From positions 21,098 through 85,097 of the forward strand of contig CAYWET010000006.1 of the NCBI GenBank assembly GCA_964457245.1: a stretch of 64,000 nt of DNA, read 5' to 3'. This stretch comes from an uncultured Chryseobacterium sp. (GTDB lineage Bacteria; Bacteroidota; Bacteroidia; UBA10329). Within the stretch, counting starts at the first letter, position 1. The number at the start of each line of letters is the position of its first letter. Shown here in pieces: positions 44,592 through 62,838 of the stretch. The translations under genes were made by a program, and so were the position numbers. A model generated the notes under the pieces. That model was not told the origin of the DNA. It saw only the letters and a program-made list of their open reading frames with translations, and made no database searches.

Positions 44592-47018
44592 GTGGACAAA
44601 TCCTCACTTATGGTTGCCATCACATTCCGATACATTGTCCACATATTCTTTTTACTGATACCTACCATTGCATCGGCTCAGGTAAATGTTGATTCGCTTT
44701 TACAGATATGGAATGATGAGAGTAAGCGAGACACAGTAAGGCTTGAGGCGCTAAAAAAAGTTGCAGGAGATGGGTATCTGCACACACATCCTGATAGCGC
44801 CTATTACTATGCGAATATATTGGCCGAATTTTCTTCCAACAAAGGATACCCTAAATATGAAGCTGATGCGATAAATATTCAAGGAACCTCGTATTACCAT
44901 CGTGGCGATTTGAAAGAAGCATCGAAACATTTTGCATTGAGTTATCAAAAACGAAAGGATCTTGGAGATAAACAGGGAGTTGCTGGGTCCTTGAATAATT
45001 TTGGACTGGTTTCCTTAAGACAGGGAAATTTTGAGGAGGCAAAAGGGTATTATTTAGAAAGCCTGACCACCTACCAAGGAATTCAGGATAGTGCCGGGAT
45101 AGCTCTTTCTCTTAACAATATTGGCAGTGTCTATAGAAATCAGGGAGACTATGATAGCGCGTTGGAATACTATTTCAAGAGTTTGTTCATAAGAGAGAAG
45201 ATTAATGATTTATCAGGGGTTGGATTTACAAACAACAATATTGGACTGATTCATATGAGAGAAGGAAGTTACGATAGCGCAGTACAGTATCTTTTAGTTG
45301 GTGGAAATATTCTTAAGGAAATCAACAACCAGCGTGGATATGCCGGTACAATGATTAACCTAGCCAACGTCTATAATTATCAGGGAGAACCATCTTTAGC
45401 ACTTGAGTATTATGAACAGGCAATGAATTCTATGAATGGTATTGGAGAAAAGAAGGGGGTTGCCATATGTTTAAGTAACATGGCTTTGATATGTAGGACG
45501 CAGGGTAACTATATCCGCGCTATTAAATACATGGTGGACGGTTTGGAAATGGAACGGAAAATTGGTGATAAGCAAGGGGAAGGAATCTCCCTTAACGGCA
45601 TCGGAACACTATATCTGGAGCAAAATGACGTTGAACATAGCCTTCCTTACTTTGAAGAGGCACTTTCCATATTGGAAGGAATTGGAGATAAGGATAACAC
45701 GACAATTGCTTTGCACAATATTGGAAATGTTCACATGAAGCGCAATGACCTTGATGCGGCCAAATTGTTTTTTACCAAGGCGCTAAAAATAAATCAGCTA
45801 ATTGAAGACAAGGCAGGAATTGCAAATTCCCTGAATAGTCTTGGTAATGTTTATAGTAAGTCAAATGATTTGGAAACGGCTGAGAAACATTATGAAAAGA
45901 GTGTTTTACTTAAGCGTAGCATTGGACTTAAAGAAGGGATGATTCCGTCACTCGTTGGGATTGCATTGATAAGTAATAGAATGGGGCGATTCGAAAAGGC
46001 AGTTGTTCTTGGTTCGGAAGCACTTGAGATTGGAAACGAATTAAACATGGTGTCGGGTATTAGAGATGCAGCGGAGTCTTTGTATTATTCTTATAAGGCA
46101 ACAGGCAACTCCTCCAAGGCTCTTGAAATGCACGAACTCTTCGTTGCGATGCGGGATAGCATTATGAGTGAAGAAAACCAGCGTGCCACTATCCGCACAG
46201 AGTTTCAGCACGATATGGATATGAAAGATGCTCAGATAAAACTGCTTGATGAGGAGAGTGCACGAAAGGCTGCCGAAGCACGCGCAGAGCGAAACAAACG
46301 CCTGTTAACCTTAGGTGTTTCCGCTTCGTTAATCGTTATTCTTTTCGGAGGGGCTTACTTTGTTCAACGCAACAGAAAACAAAGGCATCAGGTTGAGATA
46401 ACCCGTGCCGAGCTGGAGAAAAAACTGGTTGAGAACGATTTTCTTCGGTCACAACTGGATCCGCATTTCATTAAGAACGCCCTGATTAACATAGACCGAC
46501 TTTTGGCCGAAGGAAAAACGGAAGAAGCGCAACGTTATAACGACCGCTTCTACAAATTAATGAACCTAACACTTGACAATGCGAGAGAACAACTGATCGG
46601 TTTGGATGAGGAATTGGAAATGATCGAACAATATCTGGCCATTGAATCCGAGCGATTGGGAAACCGCCTACAGTGGTCAGTTACCACTGCCGATGATGTG
46701 AACCGGGCAGAGGTGGAAATTCCGCCAATGATTCTTCAACCGTTAGTGGAGAATGCACTGAAACATGGTGCAGATATGAAAACTGGCAATGGTCTTGTGA
46801 AATTGGAGGTACGTGTAGAGAACGACCGAATTCTTTGCGTTGTGGAGGACAATGGCGGTGGTGTCGACCTCGAAAAAATGAAACGTTCCACCTCGCATGG
46901 GTTGCGCATTACGAGAGAGCGTCTTGAGATGTTCAGTAAATTGAATTTGGCCGAAGCAAAACTGGATCTGATAAATATTGGAACAGGCACCCAAGCTGTG
47001 GTTTCATTTAAAATCTAA
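44592..47018 (+). CDS. TPR-repeat sensor fused to a LytS/YehU-type histidine kinase (His_kinase + HATPase_c)
   Basis: Signal peptide. ~12 TPR-like units (...LNNIG.VY...GDYD.AL.YY...). One TM helix LLTLGVSASLIVILFGGAYFV. Phospho-His motif QLDPHFIKNAL. ATPase motif LVENALKHG...DNGGG. Confidence 0.8.
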   Translation: MDKSSLMVAITFRYIVHIFFLLIPTIASAQVNVDSLLQIWNDESKRDTVRLEALKKVAGDGYLHTHPDSAYYYANILAEFSSNKGYPKYEADAINIQGTSYYHRGDLKEASKHFALSYQKRKDLGDKQGVAGSLNNFGLVSLRQGNFEEAKGYYLESLTTYQGIQDSAGIALSLNNIGSVYRNQGDYDSALEYYFKSLFIREKINDLSGVGFTNNNIGLIHMREGSYDSAVQYLLVGGNILKEINNQRGYAGTMINLANVYNYQGEPSLALEYYEQAMNSMNGIGEKKGVAICLSNMALICRTQGNYIRAIKYMVDGLEMERKIGDKQGEGISLNGIGTLYLEQNDVEHSLPYFEEALSILEGIGDKDNTTIALHNIGNVHMKRNDLDAAKLFFTKALKINQLIEDKAGIANSLNSLGNVYSKSNDLETAEKHYEKSVLLKRSIGLKEGMIPSLVGIALISNRMGRFEKAVVLGSEALEIGNELNMVSGIRDAAESLYYSYKATGNSSKALEMHELFVAMRDSIMSEENQRATIRTEFQHDMDMKDAQIKLLDEESARKAAEARAERNKRLLTLGVSASLIVILFGGAYFVQRNRKQRHQVEITRAELEKKLVENDFLRSQLDPHFIKNALINIDRLLAEGKTEEAQRYNDRFYKLMNLTLDNAREQLIGLDEELEMIEQYLAIESERLGNRLQWSVTTADDVNRAEVEIPPMILQPLVENALKHGADMKTGNGLVKLEVRVENDRILCVVEDNGGGVDLEKMKRSTSHGLRITRERLEMFSKLNLAEAKLDLINIGTGTQAVVSFKI

Positions 47019-47031
47019 GCCGGAAAAGGAA

Positions 47032-48942
47032 ATGAAGAAACTGACCACCATTCTTTTTGTTTTGACTCCGATGCTTCCGTGTAGCGCCCAGATCAATTCA
47101 GATTCATTAATGATTGTGTGGAATGATAAGAGTAAGACCGATACGCTTCGTCTTATGGCAATCGAACAGCTGAGCACAGCCTTGGTGTTTTCAAATCCAG
47201 ATTCTGCCATTTCTCTTGCCCAGTTGCAGTACGAATTTGCATTAGGCAAAAGAAGGAAATGGGAGTGTAGCGCCTTGAACCTTCAAGGGCATGCTCTTGC
47301 GGTAAAAAGTCAGTATGAAGAAGCGGTGGTTCTTTACAGGAAAAGCCTTGAAGTAGGTAAGGAAATCGGTGATGAGACTGGAATGGCCAGAGCACTCAAC
47401 AATATTGGTCTGATACTCATGGATGTGGGTGATCTTCCAGAAGCTATCGAACACTTTCAGCAAAGCCTTCTGTTGAAGGAGAAAACGAATAATCCAGCAG
47501 AGGTTATTCCTGCACTGATAAACATTGCAAATCTATATGAGACCATAGGGGAACTCGATACTGCCATTAACCGTTATCGGAGGACTCTCGAAATCTGTAA
47601 TCAGGTCGGACACGTACGTGGTTCAGCTTACTGTCTTGGTAATATGGGTATGGTGTACAAGACCAAGGGTGAATTTAACATTGCAGATTCTCTGCTGAAC
47701 GAAGCACTCGTTTTAGGGAAACAGCTGAACGATCAGCAGGCAATTGCACGATGCTTTGCGGGTCTTGGAATGGTTCAGAAGGAACGCGGTGAATACATAA
47801 AAGCGCGGGATTTTTTTCTGCAATGCGTACAAATCGCTGAATCGGTAGAAGATAAAGAAGGAATCGGTGCCATCTACTACAATCTAGGCGAGGTTTACAG
47901 GCTTCAGGGAGATTTGAGTAAGGCTCAAATTTATGCGGAGAAAGCAATTGGAGTTGCTCGAAGTGTATCACATGCTGCAGATATTAGAAATGCCGCAGAA
48001 TCCCTCTACAAGATTTACAAAGCCACGAATAGCCCCTCAAAAGCACTTGTAATGCATGAATTGTACATCGCTATGCGCGACAGCATCATGAGCGAAGAGA
48101 ATCAGCGCGCCACAATCCGTACAGAGTTTCAGCACGATATGGATATGAAAGATGCGCAGATAAAACTGCTCGATGAGGAAAAGGCGCGTAAAGATGCGGA
48201 GGCAAGGGCAGAGCGTAACAAGCGTCTGTTAACGTTAGGTATTTCCGCTTCGTTGATTGTCATTCTTATTGGAGGGGCTTATTTTCTTCAACGCAATAGA
48301 AAACAGAAACATCAGGTTGAAATTACGCGTGCGGAATTAGAGAAAAAATTGGTGGAGAATGACTTTCTACGCTCTCAATTAGATCCACATTTTATCAAAA
48401 ACGCTCTTTACAATATCGACCGTCTTTTGGTGGAAGGAAAAACTGAAGAGGCGCAACGTTATAATGACCGCTTCTATAAACTGATGAACCTGACACTTGA
48501 CCATGCTAGAGAACAATTGATTGGTCTAGATGAGGAATTGGAGATGATGGAACAATATCTGTCGCTTGAGACCGATCGGCTTGGAAACCGCCTGCAGTGG
48601 TCTGTTACGGTGGCCGATGATGTTAACCCTGCCGATATAGAACTTCCACCAATGATTCTTCAACCACTGGTAGAGAATGCGCTGAAACATGGCGCGGATA
48701 TGAAAAGTGACAAGGGTGAAGTTAAACTGGAAGTTCGGGTTGAAAATGACCGAATTCTTTGCATTGTGGAGGACAACGGTGGCGGTATCGATCTGGAAAA
48801 GGTGAAACGCTCAACCTCGCATGGGTTGCGAATTACTACGGAGCGTCTTGAGATGTTCAGTAAGCTCAACCTTGCAGAAGCTAGGTTGGATATGCAAAAT
48901 ACCGGTAACGGTACACGAGCGGTGGTGTCATTTGCAGTTTAA
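47032..48942 (+). CDS. Paralogous TPR-sensor/LytS-type histidine kinase
   Basis: Same architecture. The C-terminal ~290 aa are near-identical to the upstream kinase; the TPR region is divergent. The start was taken at MKKLTTILF (the six-frame ORF begins at 46978, overlapping the upstream gene). Confidence 0.8.
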   Translation: MKKLTTILFVLTPMLPCSAQINSDSLMIVWNDKSKTDTLRLMAIEQLSTALVFSNPDSAISLAQLQYEFALGKRRKWECSALNLQGHALAVKSQYEEAVVLYRKSLEVGKEIGDETGMARALNNIGLILMDVGDLPEAIEHFQQSLLLKEKTNNPAEVIPALINIANLYETIGELDTAINRYRRTLEICNQVGHVRGSAYCLGNMGMVYKTKGEFNIADSLLNEALVLGKQLNDQQAIARCFAGLGMVQKERGEYIKARDFFLQCVQIAESVEDKEGIGAIYYNLGEVYRLQGDLSKAQIYAEKAIGVARSVSHAADIRNAAESLYKIYKATNSPSKALVMHELYIAMRDSIMSEENQRATIRTEFQHDMDMKDAQIKLLDEEKARKDAEARAERNKRLLTLGISASLIVILIGGAYFLQRNRKQKHQVEITRAELEKKLVENDFLRSQLDPHFIKNALYNIDRLLVEGKTEEAQRYNDRFYKLMNLTLDHAREQLIGLDEELEMMEQYLSLETDRLGNRLQWSVTVADDVNPADIELPPMILQPLVENALKHGADMKSDKGEVKLEVRVENDRILCIVEDNGGGIDLEKVKRSTSHGLRITTERLEMFSKLNLAEARLDMQNTGNGTRAVVSFAV

Positions 48943-48955
48943 GTAGTTTCGAAGA

Positions 48956-49705
48956 ATGATTCGCGCCATCATTATAGAAGACATCCAAGACCATAGGGAA
49001 TTGCTGAAAGAGCGCCTCGAGGATCATGATGATGTAACAGTTGTGGGCGAATTCGTGAATGCTGACAAAGGGCTTGTTGGAATTAGGCAACATAAACCTG
49101 ATCTGATCTTTCTTGATGTGGAAATGCCGTCTGGAATGAATGGATTGGAGATGCTTGAACAGATTCCCACCGATGATCGTGATTTCGGACTGATTTTTAC
49201 CACCATGCACGAGAAGTATGCGCGTAGGGCGATTGACATGGCATGTTTAGATTACCTAGACAAGCCAATTGTGGCTGAAAAGTTAGCCGAGGCTCTTAGA
49301 CGATTCAGAGAATCGGATAAGGAATCTCTGACCAAGCGCAACGGTATATTGGGCAAGGAGAACATGCTGGCAATTGCCAACATCCAAAAGGGGAAACGGT
49401 ACGAAACAATTGTTGATGCTCGAAACATCATATACTGCAAGGCAGACGGGAATTATACCGAATTCTATCTTAAAGATGGCCGCTTTTTATCCGCAAGCAA
49501 GGGCATCGCACATTACACTAAGTTGCTTGAATCATATGGAATGCTAAAGGTGCATCGGTCTTACCTGATAAATCTGAATCATGTCGATTCAATTGCCCAA
49601 GATGAAGTTATTATGAGAATGGAGGCACACCCGGAAAGTGTTAAGCGTTCCGTGTCTGTTTCCCGTGCCTATTCGCAGATTCTTCAGGCCCGCTTGTTGA
49701 GGTAA
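48956..49705 (+). CDS. LytTR-family two-component response regulator (receiver + LytTR DNA-binding domain)
   Basis: Receiver with acidic pocket IIIEDIQD and phospho-Asp context LIFLDVEMP. C-terminal LytTR pattern (...YCKADGNYTEFYLKDG...HRSYLINL...). Confidence 0.85.
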   Translation: MIRAIIIEDIQDHRELLKERLEDHDDVTVVGEFVNADKGLVGIRQHKPDLIFLDVEMPSGMNGLEMLEQIPTDDRDFGLIFTTMHEKYARRAIDMACLDYLDKPIVAEKLAEALRRFRESDKESLTKRNGILGKENMLAIANIQKGKRYETIVDARNIIYCKADGNYTEFYLKDGRFLSASKGIAHYTKLLESYGMLKVHRSYLINLNHVDSIAQDEVIMRMEAHPESVKRSVSVSRAYSQILQARLLR

Positions 49706-49954
49706 GTACCCTTCTGCTTTCTGACCAGTACCGCCATTTGCATAAGCGGTATTCTCCTGATTTTCCATTCGTACAGAGAATCCTACCATTCGACAGGAAA
49801 TGATGTCCATTCATACATCTTGATCTTCCTGTGCTCACTTCTCAAATACGTTTGCTCCTGTAATCGAAAACAAAAACATGAGCAAAGTTACCGGTCATAA
49901 AGTTCAAACCACCTCTTGTCAATTGAATGGCACAGTTCGGTTTGAACAAGGGTA

Positions 49955-50368
49955 ATGGACACTCGAAATAAAGAATTTAACAAACTGAATAAGATGAAAA
50001 ATCACCCTAAAACCATAGCAGTATTAGAACTCCTGCATGTGCTTGCCGAAGATGGGATACACCGTATGAGTTTGAACCAGATCACCTGTCTCAACTCATC
50101 AGGAGCTTACACTCACATTCATTACCTGAATGGGAAAAAAGTAGAGGTCGGCAAAAACCTGAGAAGGTTTGAAGAGGCATTGGAGCCGTACCAATTTTTC
50201 AGGGTGCACAAAAGTCACGTGGTGAACATGGAGCGTATAGAACGCTACCGTGCAACCAAAAGTGGAGGCACAGTGGAGCTTTCGGATGGCAGAACCCTAC
50301 CAGTGGCACGCTCCAGAAAATCAGCATTTCTCAAGGCATTCAAAGAACTGGCAACAGTAACCATATAG
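49955..50368 (+). CDS. Stand-alone LytTR DNA-binding domain protein (no receiver)
   Basis: 137 aa. LytTR pattern ...YTHIHYLNGKKVEV...FRVHKSHVVNMERI.... The start may be the internal Met at 49994. Confidence 0.7.
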   Translation: MDTRNKEFNKLNKMKNHPKTIAVLELLHVLAEDGIHRMSLNQITCLNSSGAYTHIHYLNGKKVEVGKNLRRFEEALEPYQFFRVHKSHVVNMERIERYRATKSGGTVELSDGRTLPVARSRKSAFLKAFKELATVTI

Positions 50369-50402: not shown

Positions 50403-51815
50403 ATGAAAAAGACAGCACTTATTATTCTACTCCTTGCAGCGGCTAACGTCTTTGCCTTACCGCAGGAACTCCAACAGGCCATAACGGAAATCAAGAACGA
50501 CCTGCACGAAATACGCTCAGTACGATATACCGTTAATCAGAGCATCCTACCTGTTTCAGGTTCAATAGTTGACTTTCAACTTAATAACACGGATAGTAAA
50601 GGTCGTGTTTCTTCGACCACATATCGTGTTGACCTAGCAGACATTGACCCTCTACTTCTTACAAGTGGTGTGGAACGAGACATGATGAAAGTGGAGGTTC
50701 ATGCAAAGGGAAAACAACGTTTCATTACCGAACTGAAGGGCGGTGAGGTGACGCGTTACACAGACCGTTTTAAGCTTGATGTACGCGATATGGATAACGC
50801 ACGACAACTTATGGATGCTTTTAAGAAAGGCATTGCTGTTGCTGAAAGTATGGACACGTATAAAGGTCAGTTCGGCTCGTTGCGAGAGGTGTTACTAGAG
50901 CTTTCGTCCTTGGTAAAACCATTGGGCAATACGGTTTCTGTACAGAAAATACTCGTTTCTGAAGACAGAGCAGAGAAACTGCAGCACGTAATCCGCAGAG
51001 GAGATGGAGTCGTTCTCAAGCATGAGTTCAACCTAAAAGATATGAACGCTACCACCGTAGATTACGTGGCCAGCGGCCGCAACTTGAGTATTAAATTGAA
51101 TACGTACGGGGGAAGCAAAGCGGTAAAAAGATACCAGAATGATCTGGCAAAAGACTTCGTACCCAATTTTACGGTAGCGGCAGAAACCGTTGAGCAAGCT
51201 AAAAAGATAAAAGCCCTTTTTGAACTGGCAATCAATGCTGCCAATGGCAATGCTCTGAAGAAAACACATTCTGCTCCGTCACGGTCATCTGCTCCACCAA
51301 GTGGATCTTCTGCCAGCAGAAAAACATCTTCCGCACAAACTCCATCTCAGGATAATGGTGGATTTCCAAAGGTGGAGTTGACCAAAGACCCTGAAAGTGG
51401 AAAATATGCTTGGGCTGGCGTATATCACTTTCCAGGACAATCTCTAGAGGAGCTTTACCGAGCGGCAGAGGCTTCCATACCAACTAACATGGTTATTTCA
51501 AAAACGGACAACCAAATCGTTTTTCAACGTATGGGAGGAAACCGAACCGCCCTGAGATTGGGAGGAGACGCCTATATCTCCTTCACCATAAAAGTGAGCT
51601 TCAAAGAAGGAAAGATACGAATGGAAGAGACCGACTTCTTCTATGATAACCGCGCTTGGGGATTCTCGGCACCACAAACTCTTGAAACCATGAATGCCAA
51701 GAAACTGAACAAAATCGTAGGAGACATTAACGAACGACTCACGAAGGGCAACAACACTATGATGGATGGCCTAAAGACCAAGTTGAGGCTCACTTCCCAA
51801 GAAGAAGATTGGTAA
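50403..51815 (+). CDS. Secreted hypothetical protein, 470 aa
   Basis: Signal peptide MKKTALIILLLAAANVFA. Ser/Pro-rich linker in the middle. No motif recognised. Confidence 0.6.
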   Translation: MKKTALIILLLAAANVFALPQELQQAITEIKNDLHEIRSVRYTVNQSILPVSGSIVDFQLNNTDSKGRVSSTTYRVDLADIDPLLLTSGVERDMMKVEVHAKGKQRFITELKGGEVTRYTDRFKLDVRDMDNARQLMDAFKKGIAVAESMDTYKGQFGSLREVLLELSSLVKPLGNTVSVQKILVSEDRAEKLQHVIRRGDGVVLKHEFNLKDMNATTVDYVASGRNLSIKLNTYGGSKAVKRYQNDLAKDFVPNFTVAAETVEQAKKIKALFELAINAANGNALKKTHSAPSRSSAPPSGSSASRKTSSAQTPSQDNGGFPKVELTKDPESGKYAWAGVYHFPGQSLEELYRAAEASIPTNMVISKTDNQIVFQRMGGNRTALRLGGDAYISFTIKVSFKEGKIRMEETDFFYDNRAWGFSAPQTLETMNAKKLNKIVGDINERLTKGNNTMMDGLKTKLRLTSQEEDW

Positions 51816-52077: not shown

Positions 52078-52157
52078 TCATTCTTTAGCCCTGTCAACGT
52101 TTTGAACGCTGGCAGGGTTTAATAATCTTTACAACACAACCCTTAAGATAAAAGACC

Positions 52158-55557: not shown

Positions 55558-56408
55558 GCAAGAAACTACTCTTACCTATTCTAGTTATTGTTTTCCAACT
55601 CCCATTAAGTGTGTTAGGGCAGTCTGTTGGTAAGCAGGTAGTGGAGCACGAGTTGAAATTATTGGTCAAGAACTACGATGAGTTCATGGCGCGGTTCAAC
55701 TTTACCATGGATCCTTTCGGTAACCCCATTAAAGACACAGCCCATGTTTACTTGGAAAACGTAGCAGGGATTCAAAAAATTGATCGAAAACTCTCAGTGT
55801 CGTTCCTTATTGATGCGGAACTTTGCGAACGACATCCAGATTTGTGCGAACGTTTTGTGGATGATGTTACTGACAAGGAAAATCCGTATTTGCTCAATTT
55901 CCATGACCCGAATTGGTACTGCGTGCGGCCCGCAACGGTCAGGTTCAACGGGAGTGAACAAAGCCTTAGTCTAACCATGCAGGTGGAAGTTCATGACGGG
56001 CGACAGTCAAAATGGGTAATCTGTGGTGTAGATGCTCCCTTTCTGCCTGCGATAAAAACGGAGCACGACAAAGATCGACTCATTGCACCAGATAGCAACA
56101 GCAGCGGTTTTGTGGCGCTAAGACGTGCTTTTGAAGATGTTGAACACTTTGATGAATACCTGCCGAGGAGTTTTGGAACTGATGGACTGACTCGTTTGGC
56201 CACGGCTTGCAAAAACGGGCAGCTGGAATATGTCAGTGCTAAAGGGCAACAGGAGTATCATCTGCTTCAAATACCGGGCTGGGTTGTAATGATTCAATAT
56301 TTCAAACGGAAAGATGGTAATCGAGGGTGGCTTATTTCTGAACTGCACCCGTTAACGGATGAGGAAAAAGAAATCTATTTGAAGGAATATCTCAACATCG
56401 GTCAATGA
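55554..56408 (+). CDS. Secreted hypothetical protein, 284 aa
   Basis: Signal peptide MSKKLLLPILVIVFQLPLSVLGQ. 4-bp overlaps with both neighbours. Confidence 0.55.
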   Translation: MSKKLLLPILVIVFQLPLSVLGQSVGKQVVEHELKLLVKNYDEFMARFNFTMDPFGNPIKDTAHVYLENVAGIQKIDRKLSVSFLIDAELCERHPDLCERFVDDVTDKENPYLLNFHDPNWYCVRPATVRFNGSEQSLSLTMQVEVHDGRQSKWVICGVDAPFLPAIKTEHDKDRLIAPDSNSSGFVALRRAFEDVEHFDEYLPRSFGTDGLTRLATACKNGQLEYVSAKGQQEYHLLQIPGWVVMIQYFKRKDGNRGWLISELHPLTDEEKEIYLKEYLNIGQ

Positions 56409-58699
56409 GGTGGTTGATACATATCGTTTTGGTGTTGATTCCCATGGCCGGGGTTGCACAGCAAACTTTTGAGGTAAGTCCCACAGAAAAGGAACAGTTT
56501 GTTCGAGATGCACAATCGGTTGTAAAAAGGTATGGTTTAAATCTCATTGAATTAGGCGACAGTCTGCGAGAGCCGTGGGAAAAGCAAGTAGAAGAAGTGG
56601 CCATCCTGAACCTGTTCGATCGAACGGATGTCCTGGTTCCGAATGATATTGACGCGTCTGGAGAACAATCCAAGGAAAAATCAATTTCAGCGTATCTAAG
56701 TACTCTGAAAATCAATTATTCTCGCTTTGGACTGGATATTGATACACGAATAGATCGCTCACGGAGCAACGCTTTATATATAGATTCGAAAAGCGCTAAT
56801 CCATACCTGTTTGTGAAGGTGGTGGTGGAGAGAAGCCTGAAAGGAAAGAATGATCAAGACATTTCGATTGACACCACCTTGTGGTTGGATGTTTATGTAC
56901 TTTATTGGCTTAACGGAGACGGAACGTATGACCCCAATGCCTACATCTATGCAATAGAACCGCACGACCCTGACACCAAGTATGAACAGGTGCCGATAAA
57001 GGGAGAACGGCCACAAGCTGTCGCCAGAGTAGATCAACAGACCATCACCAGCCCAACGACACCTAAACCGACCGAAGAGAGCGTGCCTACGGCTCAAAGC
57101 CAACCGAAGCAAACAGATACGGACTCTCAAAAGACTGTTCCGGTTCCCCAAGAACCCAAGGATTGTCCATACAAACCACCACGTTTTGTTTCTTCATCTG
57201 ACCACAAAAGGTTATGGAAGGAATTTGTTTATTCCAGCAACGCCTACAGGAAGGCAGTACTTGAGAAGGGTGTACGTGGAAGCGGAACCATCTGGTTTAC
57301 CGTTAAGGCTGATGGCGCTATATACGACCCAACACTGGGGATTGACTCTGAAGTATTTGAAGGCAAAGAATATGCGATAAAGGAGGTTGCTCAACAGTTG
57401 ATGACCGAAAGTTCATCAAACGGAAACGCTTGGATTCCTGCAGAAGCCAACTGCGAAAAGGTTGCCCGTCAGGTAAGTGAGGAGGTGACCTTTGAATTAC
57501 ACAGAGTTAAGAGCAAAGGTTCTGAACTCACGCCTTCTAACAGGGTTCAGGTTCCTCAGAATGAGATTCCTCCTAAGCCGCTATCTAGAAAACAACAACG
57601 GAGAGGCGAAAGAGCGAATCGCAAGGAGGAAAGAGCGTGTGCCGAAGAATACCGTAGACCTAGATTCAACTCCTGCAGCAGGCACAAAAAGGAGTGGAGG
57701 GCATACGTTGGTAAGAACAACCTTTTTGTTAAGGCGGTTTTACAGGATGGGGTAAGAGGGTTTGTTGATGCAAGTGCGAGCATTACCAGAAATGGAGATA
57801 TAGAACCGGGCTCTACGCGAATAAGGCTTGGAAACCATGTGCGAAAACGGTTTGAGGCAACAGATGTAGCTATAAAACTCATTGAAGGAAGCACGGAGGG
57901 GAATAACAAGTGGATACCAGGAAAGCATCAAGGCGCAGCCGTTCAGAAACGAGGTGGCGTACACCTAGCCTATGGTAAAAGTTGGCTTGACCCGAATACT
58001 GCGATTGAATCGGGTCTGTTGACCGAACGTGGGAAGCGTAAAATGAAACGTAAAGCCGCATGGCTAGACCATAAGAAGGAAAAGATCGGAGGGGTTCATT
58101 TCAACATCGGGGGAGGTTACGCTTTTCCACTTGGTGCCAATGGGTTTAAGGGCGGTGTAGCTGAAGCTGCTTTTGGTGGATTGTTTGGGCATCATGTTGG
58201 AATGGAATTGAAATATCGGACGGTTATCGATCAGCAAGCGGGAAGATGGTTTGAGAATCTTTCTTCCAAGGCACAGACTTTCGTTCAAGTAGATAGGGCC
58301 AGTACGCTTCTTCACACATTAAGTTTGGGCTTAATATTTAACACCTCTAAAAAGCGGGTAAGACCTTACTTTACGATTCATGGTGGAGTCAATTGGCTCA
58401 GTATAGATGTAAAAGGTCAAGCTCAAGATTTCGGAGATGCTTCACCTCGATATGGTGCTGTTAGGTATTCTACCGACATGGGGTGGCACTTATCTCCTGG
58501 GTTCGGAATAGACTTCAAGATTCCGAAATATGGTAGCTTTTTCATTGCAGGAGAATTTAGCATGTACATACTCAATTTTCGGCCAATGGAATTTGATGCC
58601 AACCTAGGCTCCAATATTATTTTGTTTAGCAATCATTTCAGCTTAGGAGACAATTTGCAATTACCGGTGACCATTGGCTTCCGATTCTCCAGGTGGTAA
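56405..58699 (+). CDS. Secreted protein with two TonB-C-like domains and a C-terminal outer-membrane beta-barrel-like region
   Basis: Two segments (WKEFVYSSNAYRKAVLEKGVRGSGTIWFTVKADGAI and WRAYVGKNNLFVKAVLQDGVRGFVDASASITRNGDI) resemble the TonB C-terminal fold motif. C-terminal Gly/aromatic-rich beta pattern ending ...IGFRFSRW. Confidence 0.5.
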   Translation: MRWLIHIVLVLIPMAGVAQQTFEVSPTEKEQFVRDAQSVVKRYGLNLIELGDSLREPWEKQVEEVAILNLFDRTDVLVPNDIDASGEQSKEKSISAYLSTLKINYSRFGLDIDTRIDRSRSNALYIDSKSANPYLFVKVVVERSLKGKNDQDISIDTTLWLDVYVLYWLNGDGTYDPNAYIYAIEPHDPDTKYEQVPIKGERPQAVARVDQQTITSPTTPKPTEESVPTAQSQPKQTDTDSQKTVPVPQEPKDCPYKPPRFVSSSDHKRLWKEFVYSSNAYRKAVLEKGVRGSGTIWFTVKADGAIYDPTLGIDSEVFEGKEYAIKEVAQQLMTESSSNGNAWIPAEANCEKVARQVSEEVTFELHRVKSKGSELTPSNRVQVPQNEIPPKPLSRKQQRRGERANRKEERACAEEYRRPRFNSCSRHKKEWRAYVGKNNLFVKAVLQDGVRGFVDASASITRNGDIEPGSTRIRLGNHVRKRFEATDVAIKLIEGSTEGNNKWIPGKHQGAAVQKRGGVHLAYGKSWLDPNTAIESGLLTERGKRKMKRKAAWLDHKKEKIGGVHFNIGGGYAFPLGANGFKGGVAEAAFGGLFGHHVGMELKYRTVIDQQAGRWFENLSSKAQTFVQVDRASTLLHTLSLGLIFNTSKKRVRPYFTIHGGVNWLSIDVKGQAQDFGDASPRYGAVRYSTDMGWHLSPGFGIDFKIPKYGSFFIAGEFSMYILNFRPMEFDANLGSNIILFSNHFSLGDNLQLPVTIGFRFSRW

Positions 58700-58717
58700 C
58701 AACTAAAAACAGATCAC

Positions 58718-60214
58718 ATGAAACAAAGCTTTAGCCTCCTTCTTTTAATGATTTTGAGCCACGCGGTCATTTCGCAGAACTGCAACCTTACCGAAGACCG
58801 AAAAGACGGCTACGGGAACATACTTCGTGGTACAGAATGGTCATATACCGATGCCAGTGGCAACTACATGCACCTTCAGTTAGACCGAACCAAGGATCGA
58901 TATACGTTTGTTGTTAGTCTGGATCAGCCCACAAGTAGCGCGGTTAGGTTTAAGATAGATGGAGAGATTCATCCTATCATATTCAATCTTAGCAATGGAG
59001 CAACCGCTAAAGCTTGGGTAAGCGAAAGCCGTGTCTATGAAAGCGAGAACGGTACAGACCGCGTAGCATTTGCAGAACAGTACACTTTTGATGCTTCTGG
59101 TCTTGCAAACTTTGATAATGCAAGAGTAACCGCCATTGTTTTCCGATGCAGTGGTCGCTCGCTTTCAACAGGAAATGCGGTGAATGAAATTCGAATTGTT
59201 CCTGATCTCGAAGCTGGAGAAAGTCTGAGTAATGCCATGAGTTGTCTTCAGAAAGAAGATGAAGCAGTTGCGCTCAAACCAGCTCCCAAACCACGAAAAG
59301 AGTCGCATGCAATCACTACTTCCACTTCAGGAAGCGCCACTTCAGACGCTCTAATGAGAGAACTGATCCAAGTAGTTGGAGAAGGCACCAAGAACATTGA
59401 TGAAAGTGTGAAAGAAAGTGGCACTACCCAAATGGAACAGAACATGTTGATGATGGAGAAGCTTGAAAACCTTTCCGCGGCCATAGAAAAACTCAACGAA
59501 ACCAAAAAAGAGGAAAAGGAATTTGTACCACGTGTATTCGGATTTGGTGCTTACTTCAAAACCAATTTTCTTTTTAGCGAAATTGATATGAACTACGGAC
59601 TGGCGGAAGCTCAGGTTTCTAAATTCCTTTCTGGAACCAGTATTAACATGTCATTGAATGCAGGGATGAGGGCTCGTGTTGGTTTTAGGTTTGAGATTAC
59701 TGCCGATTTTCTTACGTCTTTCAACGAGGTCGTTAAGTACACCGATAGCATCTACCCTCGAACAGTTACTCCCGACACCATTTATTTTGGACAACCGTAT
59801 CTTGAAACGTTTGAAAGAAGTCAAACCTGGTCGTTCTATGATGTTGGTTTGAACCCCTTGCTTGTCATTCGAAGGGGTAAGGTGAACATTTATCTCGGTT
59901 TGTCAGCATCATACATCAGGATTGAAGGAAAGTACAAGGATTCGAGCCCAAGTCAGCTTCAGGATCGTAAAGAGACAGGACAGATAACCGCGTTCAGACA
60001 AGGGGTATCACTTGGGTTTATTTTAGGAGGGGAGTATCTTATTACACCGCATTTTGGCGTTCGGGTTGAATCTGGATTAAGGTATTTTGGCATCGGAAAA
60101 ACGGTAATAAGCAGCAATGACTTATTTGAATATGATGATGACTCGAGTGTAGGGGACAATCGGCAAAACGTTTTCGGTTCGTTCGCGAGAATAGGCGGGA
60201 GTTTTTATTTCTAA
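58718..60214 (+). CDS. Secreted hypothetical protein with a C-terminal beta-barrel-like domain, 498 aa
   Basis: Signal peptide. C-terminal alternating pattern ending ...FARIGGSFYF (terminal aromatic). Confidence 0.5.
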   Translation: MKQSFSLLLLMILSHAVISQNCNLTEDRKDGYGNILRGTEWSYTDASGNYMHLQLDRTKDRYTFVVSLDQPTSSAVRFKIDGEIHPIIFNLSNGATAKAWVSESRVYESENGTDRVAFAEQYTFDASGLANFDNARVTAIVFRCSGRSLSTGNAVNEIRIVPDLEAGESLSNAMSCLQKEDEAVALKPAPKPRKESHAITTSTSGSATSDALMRELIQVVGEGTKNIDESVKESGTTQMEQNMLMMEKLENLSAAIEKLNETKKEEKEFVPRVFGFGAYFKTNFLFSEIDMNYGLAEAQVSKFLSGTSINMSLNAGMRARVGFRFEITADFLTSFNEVVKYTDSIYPRTVTPDTIYFGQPYLETFERSQTWSFYDVGLNPLLVIRRGKVNIYLGLSASYIRIEGKYKDSSPSQLQDRKETGQITAFRQGVSLGFILGGEYLITPHFGVRVESGLRYFGIGKTVISSNDLFEYDDDSSVGDNRQNVFGSFARIGGSFYF

Positions 60215-60231
60215 ATTAAAAGAAGCAGATT

Positions 60232-60771
60232 ATGTCAACGCAGACTGTAGTCGTAGTCAATCAAAAGAGCATGGCCGTTGGCCTACTGCTCACTTTTTTC
60301 TTTGGGCCTTTAGGTATGTTGTATTCAACAGTTTTAGGTGCAGTGATCATGTTCTTCGTTAACATATTGGCATTCGTTTTTACGGCAGGTATCGGCCTCT
60401 TGCTTACTTGGCCCATTGGCCTGATTTGGTCAGGAGTTGCCATCAGCAGTCATAATAGTAATCTTGTTTCTACCGGTGCCGCCACTCCACACCAAAAAAA
60501 CCAAGAAGCACAGGCCCCAAGTGCGCCCGTTACAGAGCGACCCGCTGCAACAGATCAACCACCAGTTGAAAAGACAACTCCCGCCAAAGCTTACCAAACT
60601 GTACCCAAGGCTTCGGGCTGTGCCAAGTGTGGAACCGAGATGGAAGCGGATGACAAATTCTGTTTCAACTGCGGCACCGAAAGAAAACAACAGCAGTTTT
60701 GTGCAAATTGTGGAAACACAATAACGGCCAATAACAAGTTCTGCAGTGGTTGTGGCGCCAAGGTAGCTTAA
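60232..60771 (+). CDS. TM2-domain membrane protein with a C-terminal double zinc ribbon
   Basis: Two TM helices with a GPLGMLYS motif (TM2-like). Two CxxC...CxxC pairs (CAKCG...CFNCG; CANCG...CSGCG). Confidence 0.55.
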   Translation: MSTQTVVVVNQKSMAVGLLLTFFFGPLGMLYSTVLGAVIMFFVNILAFVFTAGIGLLLTWPIGLIWSGVAISSHNSNLVSTGAATPHQKNQEAQAPSAPVTERPAATDQPPVEKTTPAKAYQTVPKASGCAKCGTEMEADDKFCFNCGTERKQQQFCANCGNTITANNKFCSGCGAKVA

Positions 60772-60802
60772 CCCCTAATATGAACCTTAAATACCCGTTA
60801 AC

Positions 60803-61546
60803 ATGAACTTTCTCACCTTCCTGTTTCCTTACATAGAAACCGTTACATCGGGAAGCTTTCTCCGAAAATTCTTTGGTATCCTGTACAAGGTTTTCGGCTG
60901 GTTTTTCTTTGGTGGCAGTATTGTAGCCATGCTTATGGGGTTGTTTGCCGCATTCAAAACAGAGCAGATGATGATTGTGCTCGGATCACTGTTCACGGCT
61001 CCGATATTGGCGGCTGGCGGTTATTTGCTTTTGCAGATAAGCCTTTACAGGTCTAAGACACTTACAGAATTGACCAAAGAAGATTATACCGCCATTCCAA
61101 TTGTTTCCATTTTTCTTCGGTACGTGGGCGAACTTTACTTTGCTGTGGTACTTGTTCAAGGGCTCATAATGCTTATAGGTTCTTTGTTTGTTGCAAATTC
61201 GTTTTTCGGTGGATTTTCGTCTATGTTGCATTGGATAGATTTGCCATTTGTTAATGAGTTACGATACAACGGAGGGGCGTTTGTTGCAGTCCTTCTTATG
61301 TACGTAGCTGCGCTTATCGGTGGGGTGCTCGTATTGTTGTTCAGTTATCTGTTGGCAGAACTGGTAGTTGTGCTGGCAGAGATAGCTTCCAACACCAGAA
61401 AGCTGAATACAGGGGTGTCGGTTCCGTTAGAAGAACAGGGCACTTCGATTACTGAAGAAGCCCCCCGGCCTGGCAAATGTTCGGCCTGCGGACAACAGAA
61501 TACCGAAGAAGACACTTTCTGTATCAACTGTGGCAATAAACTCTGA
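60803..61546 (+). CDS. Polytopic membrane protein with a C-terminal zinc ribbon
   Basis: ~6 hydrophobic helices. C-terminal CSACG...CINCG. Confidence 0.55.
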   Translation: MNFLTFLFPYIETVTSGSFLRKFFGILYKVFGWFFFGGSIVAMLMGLFAAFKTEQMMIVLGSLFTAPILAAGGYLLLQISLYRSKTLTELTKEDYTAIPIVSIFLRYVGELYFAVVLVQGLIMLIGSLFVANSFFGGFSSMLHWIDLPFVNELRYNGGAFVAVLLMYVAALIGGVLVLLFSYLLAELVVVLAEIASNTRKLNTGVSVPLEEQGTSITEEAPRPGKCSACGQQNTEEDTFCINCGNKL

Positions 61547-61551
61547 ACACC

Positions 61552-62838
61552 ATGTACTGTACTTCTTGCGGCAATCAACTTAAAGAAGGACAGAAATTCT
61601 GTCCAAAATGCGGCACACCCTCAAAGGCCGCAACAAAAACCGGCCTCGCACAAAATACTGCTGATAAAAACCTTGAAAAGGAAAGGTTGAGGCAACAGGC
61701 AGAGCAAAAGCGAATTAAAGAAGAACAGGAGGCCAAAGAACGAGAGGCTGCTAGAGAAAAACGGCAACAGGAAGAGGCCGAAAAAAGGTTGGCGATTGCC
61801 AAGGCGGAAGAGGAACGAAAAAAGCAGGAAGAACTCCAACGACAAGCTGAGTTAGAAAGAAAGGCAAGAGAAGAGGCCGAAAATGCAGCGCGTAAACAAC
61901 TTGAACAACGGGAAAGGAAGCGGATGGAGGAAATGCGTATGCCGCTACCAGACTCAATCTTACTTGCAGTGCGAACCTCTTTGCTGGAGCATGGAGTTTT
62001 TAACCAGGAACAGGTTGACGACATCTATAGAAAGACCAGAGCAGCAGGAATTGACGATGCGCGTACAAAGTTTCAATTGGAATCGGAGCTTGAACGATTT
62101 GAAAAACGGACTGTCTCACCGGTTGTGAAGGAAAAGAAGAAACCCAAACGCAGTTGGGTTGGATTGGTGTGGTTTCTTGGCATACTTCTTATCCTGGCCC
62201 TTTTGGTAGGGTTTGGTTACGTCTTCCGGCTTGAGGTATTGAATACCTTGGATAATTGGGGCCTACAGACCACAGCCCTCCGCGGAAAGTTGGGCGTAGA
62301 GAGTCAGACCAGGGTCATCGATACCATCATGGTAGATAAATTGAATGATGCCGAGGTAGGTAAGATTGAAGAACCAGACCTTACTGCAATGGAGGAATCT
62401 GATGTAATAGAAGATTCCGTTGAAGTTGGTGAGAATGAGCATGTCGGAGAAGCCGAAATCTCAACCAAAGCCGTCTATAAACCTGACCCAAAGCCTGAAC
62501 CAGTTCCTAAAACACCTCAATCTCCCAAGATCTATTCCGTTGTGGATGTCTCACCCGAATATCCGGGAGGTACCAAAGGGCTACAGTCTTTTATTGAAAG
62601 AAATATGCGCTATCCGGTCGAAGCTCGAAGAAAAGACCAAACAGGAACAGTATTTCTCAAGTATGAAGTAACCTCTGCGGGAAGTATTGGCGAGGTTCAA
62701 GTAATTCGGGGAGTTGCGCCTTCCCTAGATCAAGAAGCCGTTCGCATCATTAAAAGCATTAGTGGTTACAGCCCTGGATATAAGGACGGAAAAGCTGTCA
62801 GCACTTACCAAAATACTAAGGTTAGATTCATGTTGTGA
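61552..62838 (+). CDS. TonB-C-terminal-domain protein with an N-terminal zinc ribbon and a long ER/K-rich single alpha-helix on the cytoplasmic side of its TM segment
   Basis: N-terminus MYCTSCG...CPKCG. ~90-aa E/R/K-rich helix. TM helix WVGLVWFLGILLILALLVGFGYVF. C-terminal YSVVDVSPEYPGG...GTVFLKYEVTSAGSIGEVQVIRG... matches the TonB_C fold motif. Confidence 0.65.
   Translation: MYCTSCGNQLKEGQKFCPKCGTPSKAATKTGLAQNTADKNLEKERLRQQAEQKRIKEEQEAKEREAAREKRQQEEAEKRLAIAKAEEERKKQEELQRQAELERKAREEAENAARKQLEQRERKRMEEMRMPLPDSILLAVRTSLLEHGVFNQEQVDDIYRKTRAAGIDDARTKFQLESELERFEKRTVSPVVKEKKKPKRSWVGLVWFLGILLILALLVGFGYVFRLEVLNTLDNWGLQTTALRGKLGVESQTRVIDTIMVDKLNDAEVGKIEEPDLTAMEESDVIEDSVEVGENEHVGEAEISTKAVYKPDPKPEPVPKTPQSPKIYSVVDVSPEYPGGTKGLQSFIERNMRYPVEARRKDQTGTVFLKYEVTSAGSIGEVQVIRGVAPSLDQEAVRIIKSISGYSPGYKDGKAVSTYQNTKVRFML

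Follow-up and report, generated by a model that had tools for sequence, protein, structure and literature searches.

In LytS/LytR-class systems (LytSR, YehUT/YpdAB, and FimS-AlgR), a membrane sensor of the 5TM-Lyt or GAF type feeds a transmitter composed of His_kinase (PF06580) and HATPase_c, whose partner is a REC-LytTR regulator. Among these regulators, AlgR and LytR act on functions of the cell surface or envelope. In LytTR Regulatory Systems (HdrRM and BrsRM of Streptococcus mutans), the first gene of the operon encodes a soluble, receiver-less LytTR protein, and its neighbor encodes the cognate membrane inhibitor. Autoactivation by the receiver-less regulators runs through two 9-bp repeats, 12 bp apart, immediately in front of the regulator's promoter (Zou et al. 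2018, PMC6193735). Bacteroides "LRS-like" examples combine a TAnnTTTG −7 box with ATTCA-containing repeats (PMC6193735), as does the locus described here. By analogy, we consider the LytTR Regulatory System, which is absent from the earlier note, to be the closest regulatory precedent.

The locus occupies positions 44592–62838 of the window, the whole 64-kb stretch of DNA analyzed. Re-examination of the ORF list places 15 co-directional ORFs there, all on the plus strand, as are all features given below, and each is where the earlier note had put it. The 4-nt overlaps between ORF9 and ORF10 (55554/55557) and between ORF10 and ORF11 (56405/56408) are present, and the remaining gaps from ORF8 to ORF15 are 5–31 bp. 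Short junctions had been claimed throughout, but larger gaps interrupt the array upstream: 249 bp between the response regulator gene and the LytTR-only gene, 67 and 80 bp on the two sides of ORF6, and 120–177 bp upstream of ORF8. Nearly all of the earlier domain calls are reproduced with Pfam, and a signal peptide or TM segments are seen on every one of ORF5–ORF15. In agreement with the earlier statement that no named system matches, none is returned by Pfam, NCBIfam, or PADLOC; in these resources, ORF5, ORF6, ORF9, and ORF10 have no matches, and the remaining operon products have only generic domains above cut-off (OM barrel, zinc ribbon, and TonB_C).

The same gene order is found in three further loci (L001, L019/L021, and L020), with protein identities of 35–69%. 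The genes for the response regulator, the LytTR-only protein, ORF5, and ORF8–ORF12 are colinear in all of them, with one gene-order change in L020 relative to the others. This recurrence excludes a chance juxtaposition, which the earlier note had named as the alternative. The carriers are a few uncultured Flavobacteriales.

The first two genes encode sensor kinases, each with TPR, His_kinase (PF06580), and HATPase_c domains in Pfam. HK1 (44592–47018; likely start, ATG at 44610) is composed of a signal peptide or anchor, ~11 periplasmic TPRs, a coiled coil, a TM segment (residues 571–589), and the LytS-type transmitter. HK2 (47032–48942) has the same architecture with a shorter TPR array; its likely start is the ATG at 47032, where the ORF lister had the TTG at 46978. 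The two kinases have near-identical transmitters and divergent periplasmic TPR sensors: they are 59% identical in a full-length alignment, ~93% identical over the last ~310 residues (counted by eye on the alignment), and 27–29% identical in the TPR sensor regions. The response regulator (48956–49705; REC and LytTR DNA-binding domains in Pfam) has a receiver with the acidic pocket, the D of "LIFLDVEMP", and the T and K residues, and has orthologues in L001, L019, and L020. The transmitters and their partner are those of the LytS/LytR class, but the sensors are long periplasmic TPR arrays behind a signal peptide, there are two kinases, and the target genes are unrelated. A Bacteroidetes-type −7 box just upstream of HK1 (TAGATTTG, TAnnTTTG; 44583–44590) is a putative promoter of the kinase–kinase–regulator unit; the intergenic regions of the cluster have just two TAnnTTTG matches on the plus strand, this one included.

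The gene downstream of the response regulator encodes a receiver-less LytTR protein of 137 residues (49955–50368; LytTR, E = 2e-18 in Pfam), with orthologues in L001, L019, and L020 (40–56% identity). Upstream of it, three 9-bp direct repeats with 12-bp spacers and a 21-bp period form a putative LytTR operator (49764–49814): TCCATTCGT (49764–49772), ACCATTCGA (49785–49793), and TCCATTCAT (49806–49814). Their CCATTC[AG] cores at 49765, 49786, and 49807 make up the sole site of this phasing in the 64 kb, where 0.13 such sites are expected by chance and none of 100 shuffles gave two matches. The repeats are followed by a candidate promoter −7 box of the Bacteroidetes type (TACGTTTG, TAnGTTTG; 49847–49854). 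All four loci have TA[CG]GTTTG in the corresponding position, and in none of them do the intergenic regions downstream of the regulator gene contain another consensus −7 box. The spacing is retained wholly or partly in the four loci: measured from the −7 box, the repeat cores are at −80, −59, and −38 in the window and L001, at −80 and −59 in L019, and at −59 only in L020. The LytTR control that had been claimed for the locus thus gains a putative operator and promoter directly upstream of the LytTR-only gene. As in LytTR Regulatory Systems, a soluble receiver-less protein is encoded by the first gene behind 9-bp repeats with 12-bp spacers adjoining the promoter, and positive autoregulation is predicted. 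Unlike those systems, the locus has three repeats instead of two, a secreted protein in place of the membrane inhibitor as neighbor, a complete kinase/REC-LytTR two-component system directly upstream, and up to ten further envelope genes in the operon.

That neighbor, ORF5 (50403–51815), is a secreted protein of 470 residues with two domains joined by a Ser/Pro-rich linker; its C-terminal half faintly matches DUF4468 (TBP-like). Only five relatives are found among 5.8 billion proteins, and every one with readable surroundings lies inside this cluster type. ORF6 (51883–52077) is a lipoprotein-like precursor of 64 residues, with a mature part of ~45 residues that starts CKKCYTC and five conserved Cys residues. 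The window, L001 (69% identity), and L020 carry the gene. An RNA hairpin (52087–52119; −19.8 kcal/mol) followed by UUUAAUAAUCUUU lies directly downstream, a candidate terminator or attenuator. The hairpin accompanies ORF6 in all three loci that have the gene (z = −3.8 in the window and −3.3 and −4.6 in the other two), even where the following gene changes, and its stem carries compensatory changes between the window and L001 (read by eye). The special position that the earlier note gave to the small lipoprotein is thus borne out.

The same note had drawn an analogy to peptide signaling, and ORF6 might be the secreted autoinducer of a classical quorum-sensing, bacteriocin, or competence locus. 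Such loci are often under LytTR regulators, and many genes for pheromones or structural peptides share the traits of ORF6: a small, Cys-rich, conserved product and a terminator behind the gene. However, its leader is a lipoprotein signal peptide, neither of the double-glycine nor of the AgrD type, and the cluster has no C39/ABC exporter, AgrB-like processing enzyme, or HPK10-type kinase in Pfam, nor does any small immunity-like ORF stand out. In addition, the residues that follow the lipid-attachment Cys are basic (CKK), whereas surface-exposed Bacteroidota lipoproteins are known to have acidic residues there. The analogy lacks its defining parts, and the peptide-signaling reading is very doubtful.

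ORF6 and ORF8 flank a variable slot. In the window, it holds ORF7 (52158–53630), a T9SS cargo protein with CUB-like repeats and a C-terminal T9SS sorting domain (Pfam); L020 has a homologue, L019 has a PKD/T9SS protein instead, and L001 lacks it. The genes had been described as one 11-gene operon. Synteny and co-directionality hold, but the conserved strong hairpin and the variable slot suggest that the operon is probably attenuated or split after ORF6. The L001 hairpin, with its U6 tract, reads as a textbook intrinsic terminator, and L019 has another terminator-like hairpin downstream of its T9SS gene (read by eye from the sequence). Therefore, ORF8–ORF15 may need a non-consensus promoter; no consensus −7 box precedes ORF8 in any of the loci.

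ORF8 (53808–54968; likely start, ATG at 53808, where the ORF lister had 53751) is an outer-membrane β-barrel (OMP_b-brl_2) with an acidic linker and a C-terminal domain of ~100 residues. ORF9 (54982–55557) is a secreted protein of 191 residues without a Pfam family. ORF10 (55554–56408), a secreted protein of 284 residues with the motifs VKQxDEFxxRFN, KWVI, and NSGWLI, founds a large unnamed family of 971 representative clusters for which neither Pfam nor NCBIfam has a model; its fold matches are NTF2-like and weak only. ORF11 (56405–58699) consists of a signal peptide, an N-domain, a Pro/Thr/Gln-rich linker, two TonB_C-like repeats (57158–57502 and 57638–57982), and a C-terminal outer-membrane barrel (~58082–58696; weak, sub-threshold OMP_b-brl). 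Two TonB-C folds had been assigned to this protein. Its own repeats do not match Pfam TonB_C even at E ≤ 10, and the folds are supported indirectly: the L001 orthologue scores 33.6 bits (cut-off, 24.6 bits), and the best four PDB matches of a profile of five repeats are all TonB C-terminal domains (E = 0.013–0.042). ORF12 (58718–60214) has a signal peptide, an N-domain, a charged or coiled linker, and a C-terminal β-barrel (sub-threshold OMP_b-brl); its orthologues in L001, L019/L021, and L020 are 38–50% identical.

The core from the ORF8 C-domain to the ORF11 N-domain is a widespread Bacteroidota module and not specific to this cluster. The ORF9–ORF10 pair is kept in more than 10 distant loci, with ORF9 relatives always directly upstream of ORF10 relatives, and an ORF9 profile built from the four close loci recovers all distant copies (E ≤ 4e-15). 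In the distant loci, the pair is accompanied by a caspase-like protein and by Sel1/WG/LRR/TPR adaptors. The upstream protein carries the same C-terminal domain as ORF8 (reciprocal profile matches, 1e-6 and 5e-7), and the ORF11 N-domain recurs, in several loci, on the downstream protein together with a variable binding domain and a terminal or adjacent outer-membrane barrel. In L009–L017, however, a Peptidase_C14 (caspase-like) enzyme stands upstream where this cluster has a barrel, the adaptors carry Sel1, WG, LRR, TPR, PEGA, or TSP_3 repeats instead of TonB_C, and LytTR, TPR-kinase, ORF5, ORF6, ORF12, and zinc-ribbon genes are absent. Nearly all distant loci lack a LytTR or kinase gene alongside, so the tie between the LytTR cassette and the core module may be recent and loose.

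One may ask whether two or three independent units merely travel together, the LytTR cassette controlling only a short transcript of the receiver-less LytTR gene (LytTR4), ORF5, and ORF6 that stops at the hairpin, and ORF8–ORF15 forming a separate structural operon. The hairpin after ORF6, the insertion slot, the spread of the ORF9–ORF10 module without LytTR genes, and the lack of further phased repeats elsewhere in the window all point that way. However, all four loci keep the two parts side by side and in the same orientation, for all their divergence (35–69% identity) and the rearrangement in L020; ORF5 relatives with readable surroundings are confined to this cluster type; and ORF8 lacks an upstream consensus −7 box in every locus. 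We regard this separation as possible but less likely.

At the downstream end, zinc-ribbon proteins are found in all three loci that reach so far. The two zinc-ribbon membrane proteins reported for the window are seen with their TM segments and ribbons in Pfam: ORF13 (60232–60771), a small inner-membrane protein with two TM segments and a C-terminal double zinc ribbon, and ORF14 (60803–61546), a polytopic protein with ~4–5 TM segments and a C-terminal zinc ribbon. Neither is conserved as such. The position of ORF13 is taken by an M48 peptidase with a zinc ribbon (HtpX-like) in L001 and by a Band_7_1 protein with a double zinc ribbon (SPFH-like) in L021, a hint of quality control. ORF7, ORF13, and ORF14, which had been counted as operon members, are not conserved members. 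ORF15 (61552–62838) has an N-terminal zinc ribbon (61555–61620), a Glu/Arg/Lys-rich helix, one TM segment (residues 203–221; 62158–62214), a Pro-rich linker, and TonB_C (62602–62832; 57 bits in Pfam), in accordance with the ~200 cytoplasmic residues described before. As a member it is less secure: of the three loci extending to its position, two have it (51% identity in L001) and L021 does not. With ORF15 missing there and ORF13 and ORF14 unconserved, the inner-membrane link is not a fixed feature.

ORF15 resembles the TonB/TolA family in its single TM segment, Pro-rich periplasmic linker, and C-terminal TonB_C. It could be a TonB paralogue serving uptake or energy transduction by energizing the cluster's outer-membrane proteins, and its TonB_C is bona fide. 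The TM segment of E. coli TonB has an SxxxH motif; that of ORF15 has no His and follows the ~200 residues of zinc ribbon and charged helix. The cluster barrels are small and OmpA-type, TonB_C-like domains also occur on the outer-membrane-anchored ORF11, and the cluster is without TolQR partners and, from 44.5 to 62.8 kb, without a Plug/TonB_dep_Rec receptor or ExbB/ExbD in Pfam. TonB-dependent uptake or energy transduction, already disfavored, is highly improbable.

The topology of ORF15 (cytoplasmic zinc ribbon, one TM segment, periplasmic TonB_C) is also anti-sigma-like. In a signaling route across the envelope, akin to a LytTR Regulatory System, ORF15, perhaps with ORF13 and ORF14, might sequester the receiver-less LytTR protein at the inner membrane in an inactive state. 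TonB_C contacts would sense changes in the outer-membrane complex, and the freed protein would then start autoinduction, a LytTR equivalent of cell-surface signaling of the Fec type. The 21-bp-phased repeats, the presence of zinc-ribbon proteins in every locus reaching this position, and TonB_C domains on the inner- and outer-membrane sides alike are in line with such a route. However, the neighbor of the LytTR-only gene encodes no membrane inhibitor, L021 lacks ORF15, and the zinc-ribbon proteins are alike only in the ribbon, so that we consider this route unlikely.

With moderate confidence, we instead regard the locus as a lineage-specific chromosomal envelope cluster in which a LytTR regulatory cassette has come to stand in front of the widespread Bacteroidota periplasm and outer-membrane module. 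A periplasmic ligand on either TPR sensor would lead to phosphorylation of the regulator; the regulator, the receiver-less LytTR protein, or both would bind the repeats and switch on the promoter. Transcription would begin with the receiver-less LytTR gene, giving positive feedback like that reported for LytTR Regulatory Systems. Owing to the hairpin, LytTR4, ORF5, and ORF6 would be the abundant products, with ORF7–ORF15 supplied through read-through.

On the best reading, the products would assemble an inducible, outer-membrane-anchored scaffold facing the periplasm, built from the β-barrels ORF8, ORF11, and ORF12 with their periplasmic domains and from two soluble proteins, ORF9 and ORF10, with one or more NTF2-like domains in ORF10. 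The link to the inner membrane would in this lineage be provided by ORF15, through TonB_C-to-TonB_C or TonB_C-to-barrel contacts, and by the zinc-ribbon membrane proteins. The role of such a scaffold would most likely be inducible envelope remodeling or quality control rather than transport.

The cluster is composed of 15 genes on the plus strand between 44592 and 62838, co-directional as the earlier note had described them: two sensor kinases (HK1 and HK2), a response regulator, a LytTR-only protein, and ORF5–ORF15. The likely true starts of HK1, HK2, and ORF8, all on the plus strand, are 44610, 47032, and 53808, respectively. Between ORF8 and ORF15, ORF9/ORF10 and ORF10/ORF11 overlap by 4 nt, and the other junctions measure 5–31 bp. 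Pfam bears out the domains previously assigned to the kinases, the regulator, the LytTR-only protein, ORF7, ORF8, and ORF13–ORF15. HK1 and HK2 carry TPR arrays, His_kinase (PF06580), and HATPase_c; the regulator combines REC and LytTR; ORF7 has CUB and a T9SS sorting domain; ORF8 has OMP_b-brl_2; ORF13 and ORF14 contain zinc ribbons; and ORF15 has a zinc ribbon at the N-terminus and TonB_C at the C-terminus. ORF11 matches OMP_b-brl weakly and below threshold, as does ORF12, for which this is the only match. ORF5, ORF6, ORF9, and ORF10 have zero matches in Pfam or NCBIfam, the latter adding only TonB_C and one sub-threshold barrel family. ORF7, whose Por_Secre_tail (residues 413–488) scores 44 bits in Pfam, is T9SS cargo, and this holds for ORF7 only. 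A hydropathy scan places two TMs in ORF13 and about four to five in ORF14.

Ordinary chromosomal genes (sdhCAB, ileS, asd, and a PhoH-like gene) flank the cluster, and the scanned upstream ORFs encode housekeeping or secreted proteins (14.8–23.8 kb being mostly outside the scan). On these grounds, a mobile element was rejected. An autotransporter was rejected because PF03797 is absent, and an anti-phage defence system was ruled out because none of the ten cluster proteins scanned with PADLOC matched any model. Upstream of the cluster lie an 873-aa TPR protein (29742–32363, plus strand), a T9SS cargo protein of 595 aa without any further recognisable domain (37342–39129, minus strand), and, co-directional with the cluster, a secreted protein of 869 aa that carries Lamin-tail (LTD), Big_5, and FlgD_ig-like domains (41911–44520, plus strand). 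A short GC hairpin (CCGCA-TAAAG-TGCGG; 44534–44560) separates the latter gene from the kinase promoter box. Farther upstream, three tandem paralogues on the minus strand (330–4937, 5362–9999, and 10034–14659) encode secreted proteins of ~1540 aa, mutually 60–74% identical in parts. The product of 330–4937, the only paralogue scanned, has a Peptidase_S74 domain at its end. Peptidase_S74 acts as an intramolecular chaperone in endosialidase and tail-spike proteins, and the paralogues may be surface fibres that cleave themselves and whose middle regions have diversified.

Close relatives of ORF10 are few. One, with 52% identity, lies on locus L001, where the order is the same (regulator, LytTR-only, ORF5, ORF6, ORF8–ORF12, and ORF15) and the identities are 35–69%. 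ORF5 has five relatives only among 5.8 billion proteins, and two of these led to further loci of the same layout, L019/L021 (a MAG labelled 'Flavobacteriales bacterium' by NCBI) and L020. The gene neighbourhood that the earlier note had proposed as a unit therefore recurs in L001, L019/L021, and L020, indicating that the cluster is not a random juxtaposition. With the window included, the complete 15-gene form was found in only four loci, all from uncultured bacteria; among the relatives, only the Flavobacteriales MAG is labelled. Some positions vary. The place of ORF7 is taken by a PKD/T9SS protein in L019 and by thioredoxin-like and small genes in L001, and L020 has an ORF7 homologue ahead of ORF6 and ORF5. 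At the place of ORF13 and ORF14, L001 encodes an M48 peptidase with a zinc ribbon (13636–14547) and a 101-aa zinc-ribbon protein, and L021, which lacks ORF15, encodes Band_7_1 with a double zinc ribbon (15310–16599), a membrane protein, and a 771-aa zinc-ribbon protein. The zinc ribbon is the constant element, and the fused partner domain (HtpX-like M48 or SPFH-like Band_7_1) is interchangeable.

His_kinase and HATPase_c score 59.9 and 30.7 bits in HK1 and 58.3 and 33.5 bits in HK2 (Pfam), and the H-box ('QLDPHFIKNAL') and the N-box ('LQPLVENALKHG') are readable in the sequence. The regulator, whose gene starts 13 bp after the end of HK2, scores 76 bits for Response_reg and 45.7 bits for LytTR (Pfam), with the acceptor Asp in 'LIFLDVEMP'. 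A PF06580 kinase with an adjacent REC–LytTR regulator is the arrangement of the LytS/LytTR two-component class, but the polytopic 5TM-Lyt sensor of LytS/YehU is replaced by a signal peptide, a TPR array, and a single TM. In the hydropathy scan, both kinases begin with a signal or anchor and have a single TM ahead of the transmitter, which puts the TPR arrays on the periplasmic side. The whole-length alignment of HK1 and HK2 is 59% identical, the TPR regions being 27–29% identical and the last ~310 residues (~930 nt; genes 44610–47018 and 47032–48942) about 93% identical at the protein level, as counted from the alignment. With near-identical transmitters and divergent TPR halves, two sensors would feed one almost identical output, and the sequence pattern suggests a recent duplication or a gene conversion limited to the transmitter. 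The second kinase is not conserved in L019, which has one only. In L001, the kinase–regulator link is interrupted by two inserted genes (123–1120), one of them with PRiA4_ORF3, which separate the regulator gene from what remains of a kinase where the contig begins; the inserted region has its own TAAATTTG box at position 514.

The LytTR-only protein (137 aa) consists of a LytTR domain (residues 34–129) with no receiver detected by Pfam. The 249-bp spacer ahead of its gene contains three 9-mers, TCCATTCGT at 49764, ACCATTCGA at 49785, and TCCATTCAT at 49806, separated by 12 bp, and 32 bp after the end of the third is a Bacteroidetes -7 box, TACGTTTG, at 49847. The box was sought as TAnnTTTG because the sigma-70 consensus is unsuited to Bacteroidota; a sigma-70 promoter scan was discarded, as its 29 sites showed no excess over the 31 in shuffles. 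Only 0.13 phased repeat pairs are expected by chance in the window, and the sole matches are in this spacer. When the four loci are anchored on TA[CG]GTTTG, the TTC[AG] repeat cores lie at -80/-59/-38 relative to the -7 box in the window and L001, at -80/-59 in L019, and at -59 in L020, whose flanking copies match at 6/9 positions as read by eye. From the regulator gene onward, each of the four loci has a single intergenic consensus -7 box. No phased repeats were found ahead of HK1 or ORF8, nor, in any of the four loci, a consensus internal promoter upstream of ORF8.

Autoactivating receiver-less LytTR regulators of the LytTR Regulatory System (LRS) use two 9-bp repeats with 12 bp spacing just upstream of the promoter (PMC6193735). 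The cluster resembles LRS in its receiver-less LytTR regulator and in having 9-bp direct repeats (11–13 bp apart in LRS, 12 here) immediately upstream of the operon's own promoter, at positions kept wholly or partly in the four loci. This shared geometry leads us to infer a promoter activated by the regulator, the LytTR-only protein, or both, with positive feedback from the LytTR-only protein. The cluster differs from LRS in having three repeats and in the neighbour of the LytTR-only gene, where LRS encodes the cognate transmembrane inhibitor, whose loss releases LRS autoregulation, and the cluster encodes the secreted ORF5. The membrane proteins with cytoplasmic domains (ORF13–ORF15) lie 10 kb farther downstream, and as a set they are not conserved. 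That the cluster as a whole is an LRS-like trans-envelope signalling device is, in our view, rather unlikely. The regulatory half is a LytS/LytTR two-component system combined with an LRS-like receiver-less LytTR protein, departing from both.

Directly 3' of ORF6, a small Cys-rich lipoprotein-like gene, is a 14-pair hairpin (52087–52119; -19.8 kcal/mol, z -3.8) with a U-rich stretch after it. Equally strong hairpins follow the ORF6 homologues of L001 (z -3.3) and L020 (z -4.6), and that of L020 is kept although the next gene there is ORF5. Two stem positions are changed on both sides between the window and L001, as read by eye. These features suggest either that the LytTR-only gene, ORF5, and ORF6 form a promoter-proximal, highly expressed unit past which read-through is attenuated, or that the transcript truly ends here. 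The five Cys residues of ORF6 are conserved in all three loci having it. A small Cys-rich lipoprotein, an echo of ORF6, is also encoded near the distant module of L013 (11788–12234). The earlier note had likened the cluster to peptide-signalled bacteriocin or competence programmes. The cluster lacks the hallmarks of Agr/ComCDE/Pln loci, which are a leader-peptide pheromone gene, a dedicated exporter or processing enzyme, and an HPK10-type kinase. Peptide quorum sensing, in which ORF6 would be the candidate signal, was rejected and keeps very little probability: the cluster has neither an ABC/C39 exporter nor AgrB, the signal of ORF6 is that of a lipoprotein, and the kinases are of the TPR–PF06580 type.

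The C-terminal TonB_C of ORF15 scores 57.3 bits (Pfam cut-off 24.6) and 33.2 bits with TIGR01352, the feature it shares with a TonB energy transducer. E. coli TonB has an N-terminal signal-anchor TM with an SxxxH motif. In contrast, the hydropathy scan finds one TM in ORF15, at residues 203–221 (VGLVWFLGILLILALLVGF), with no His and thus no N-terminal SxxxH anchor, and Pfam finds no ExbB/ExbD or MotA/TolQ domain among the 15 genes. TonB-dependent uptake was rejected on the missing His and the missing ExbB/ExbD, and we regard it as highly improbable. Fec-type signalling differs as well, since an ECF sigma factor, a FecR-like anti-sigma, and a TonB-dependent transducer are all absent from the cluster (Pfam).

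TonB_C folds had also been claimed twice within ORF11. In Pfam, the repeats (residues ~252–366 and ~412–526) fail to match PF03544 even at E<=10, nor do they show up when ORF11 is compared by BLAST with itself and with the TonB_C domain of ORF15. The claim gains support from the L001 orthologue, which passes the TonB_C cut-off (33.6 bits, three stretches) and whose first TonB_C-like repeat aligns with the second repeat of the window (E 2e-6). A five-repeat profile has TonB C-terminal structures as its four best PDB matches (E 0.013–0.042), and hhalign of the ORF11 repeats with the TonB_C of ORF15 gives E 0.0056 at a probability of 6.6%. The two repeats are probably TonB_C-like.

The ORF9–ORF10 pair extends far beyond the four close loci. 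Degenerate-pattern scans recover ORF10 relatives with 25–33% identity in MAGs labelled Chitinophagaceae, Flavobacteriales, and unclassified Bacteroidota/Bacteroidetes, and in metagenomes including human gut. Against 1.84 billion representatives (clusters at 50% identity), the ORF10 profile has 971 matches at E<=1e-3, 531 of them at E<=1e-30. An ORF9 relative precedes the ORF10 relative in every locus with readable upstream DNA, and an ORF9 profile built from the four close loci alone recovers all distant copies at E<=4e-15. The protein upstream of the pair has C-terminal ~100 residues homologous to the ORF8 C-domain (reciprocal profiles 1e-6 and 5e-7), and its N-terminal part is usually a caspase-like Peptidase_C14 instead of a barrel. 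The downstream gene encodes a large protein whose repeat region varies (Sel1, WG, LRR, TPR, PEGA, or TSP_3) and which has, in several loci, an ORF11-like N-domain (L018, 3e-10; L009, 0.017; weaker elsewhere; undetected in Sel1 loci). The OMP_b-brl_2 barrel is fused to this adaptor or is the product of the next gene. ORF11 fits the adaptor template, with its TonB_C-like repeats as the variable part; homology of its barrel to those of the distant adaptors is not detectable.

The ORF10 family has no Pfam or NCBIfam model and no convincing structural relative; searches of PDB sequences with the ORF9- and ORF10-family profiles found nothing, and a literature search on the ORF10 family returned no paper. 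Literature searches likewise gave no relevant account of a LytTR/TPR system in Bacteroidetes or of an operon of the caspase/Sel1/OM kind. The structural half of the cluster belongs to no described system, and novelty is likeliest in the unnamed ORF9–ORF10 module. Neighbours of the distant module include an LTD and T9SS protein in L003, a streptopain-like Peptidase_C10 protease in L009 (13086–14765), and a HipA toxin kinase in L016 (4562–5644). Directly before the pair in L018, CHASE8, HisKA, HATPase_c, and receiver pieces occur as four short genes (6918–9186), possibly the fragments of one hybrid kinase disrupted by frameshifts or by errors in assembly.

L018 is the only distant locus with sensory genes beside the module, and the two halves of the cluster could be independent units merely travelling together, as the module does occur apart from LytTR genes. 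The two halves are nevertheless adjacent and co-directional in all four close loci, and we give independence a minority share of the probability. To LytTR-controlled induction of an outer-membrane-anchored periplasmic scaffold, a picture whose regulation and product we infer from sequence, we give about even confidence. A periplasmic ligand would act on the TPR kinases, and the phosphorylated regulator would bind the operator, with positive feedback contributed by the LytTR-only protein. ORF5 and ORF6 would be made in excess, and ORF7–ORF15 would be supplied through read-through. ORF8, ORF9, ORF10, ORF11, and ORF12 would form the scaffold, which in this lineage may touch inner-membrane proteins via the TonB_C and zinc-ribbon partners. 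The M48 (HtpX-like) or Band_7 (SPFH-like) protein at the zinc-ribbon position in the relatives hints at membrane quality control.

A more far-reaching reading, which we hold to be improbable, is that the ORF8 C-domain, ORF9, ORF10, and the ORF11 N-domain form an undescribed, widespread envelope machine of Bacteroidota, here wired into a trans-envelope LytTR circuit. An outer-membrane-anchored adaptor with interchangeable binding domains would work with soluble ORF9 and ORF10 (at least partly NTF2-like), joined in most lineages by a caspase-like protease of the periplasm. The receiver-less LytTR regulator of this Flavobacteriales lineage would be gated by TonB_C contacts and by zinc-ribbon proteins of the inner membrane. 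If true, the circuit would amount to a LytTR counterpart of cell-surface signalling by anti-sigma/ECF pairs, on top of a two-sensor TPR kinase system.

To our knowledge, LytTR regulation has rarely been studied in Bacteroidota, and no ligand is known for any of their numerous TPR-sensor kinases. The cluster is real, conserved, and testable. Its putative operator is an unusually clean Bacteroidota regulatory element, with three phased putative LytTR half-sites at a fixed distance from the -7 box. A phosphorylated REC–LytTR regulator and a receiver-less LytTR autoregulator acting on one promoter would join the LRS and two-component paradigms, and naming and characterising the ORF9–ORF10 family would bring annotation to a block of hypothetical envelope genes that recurs.
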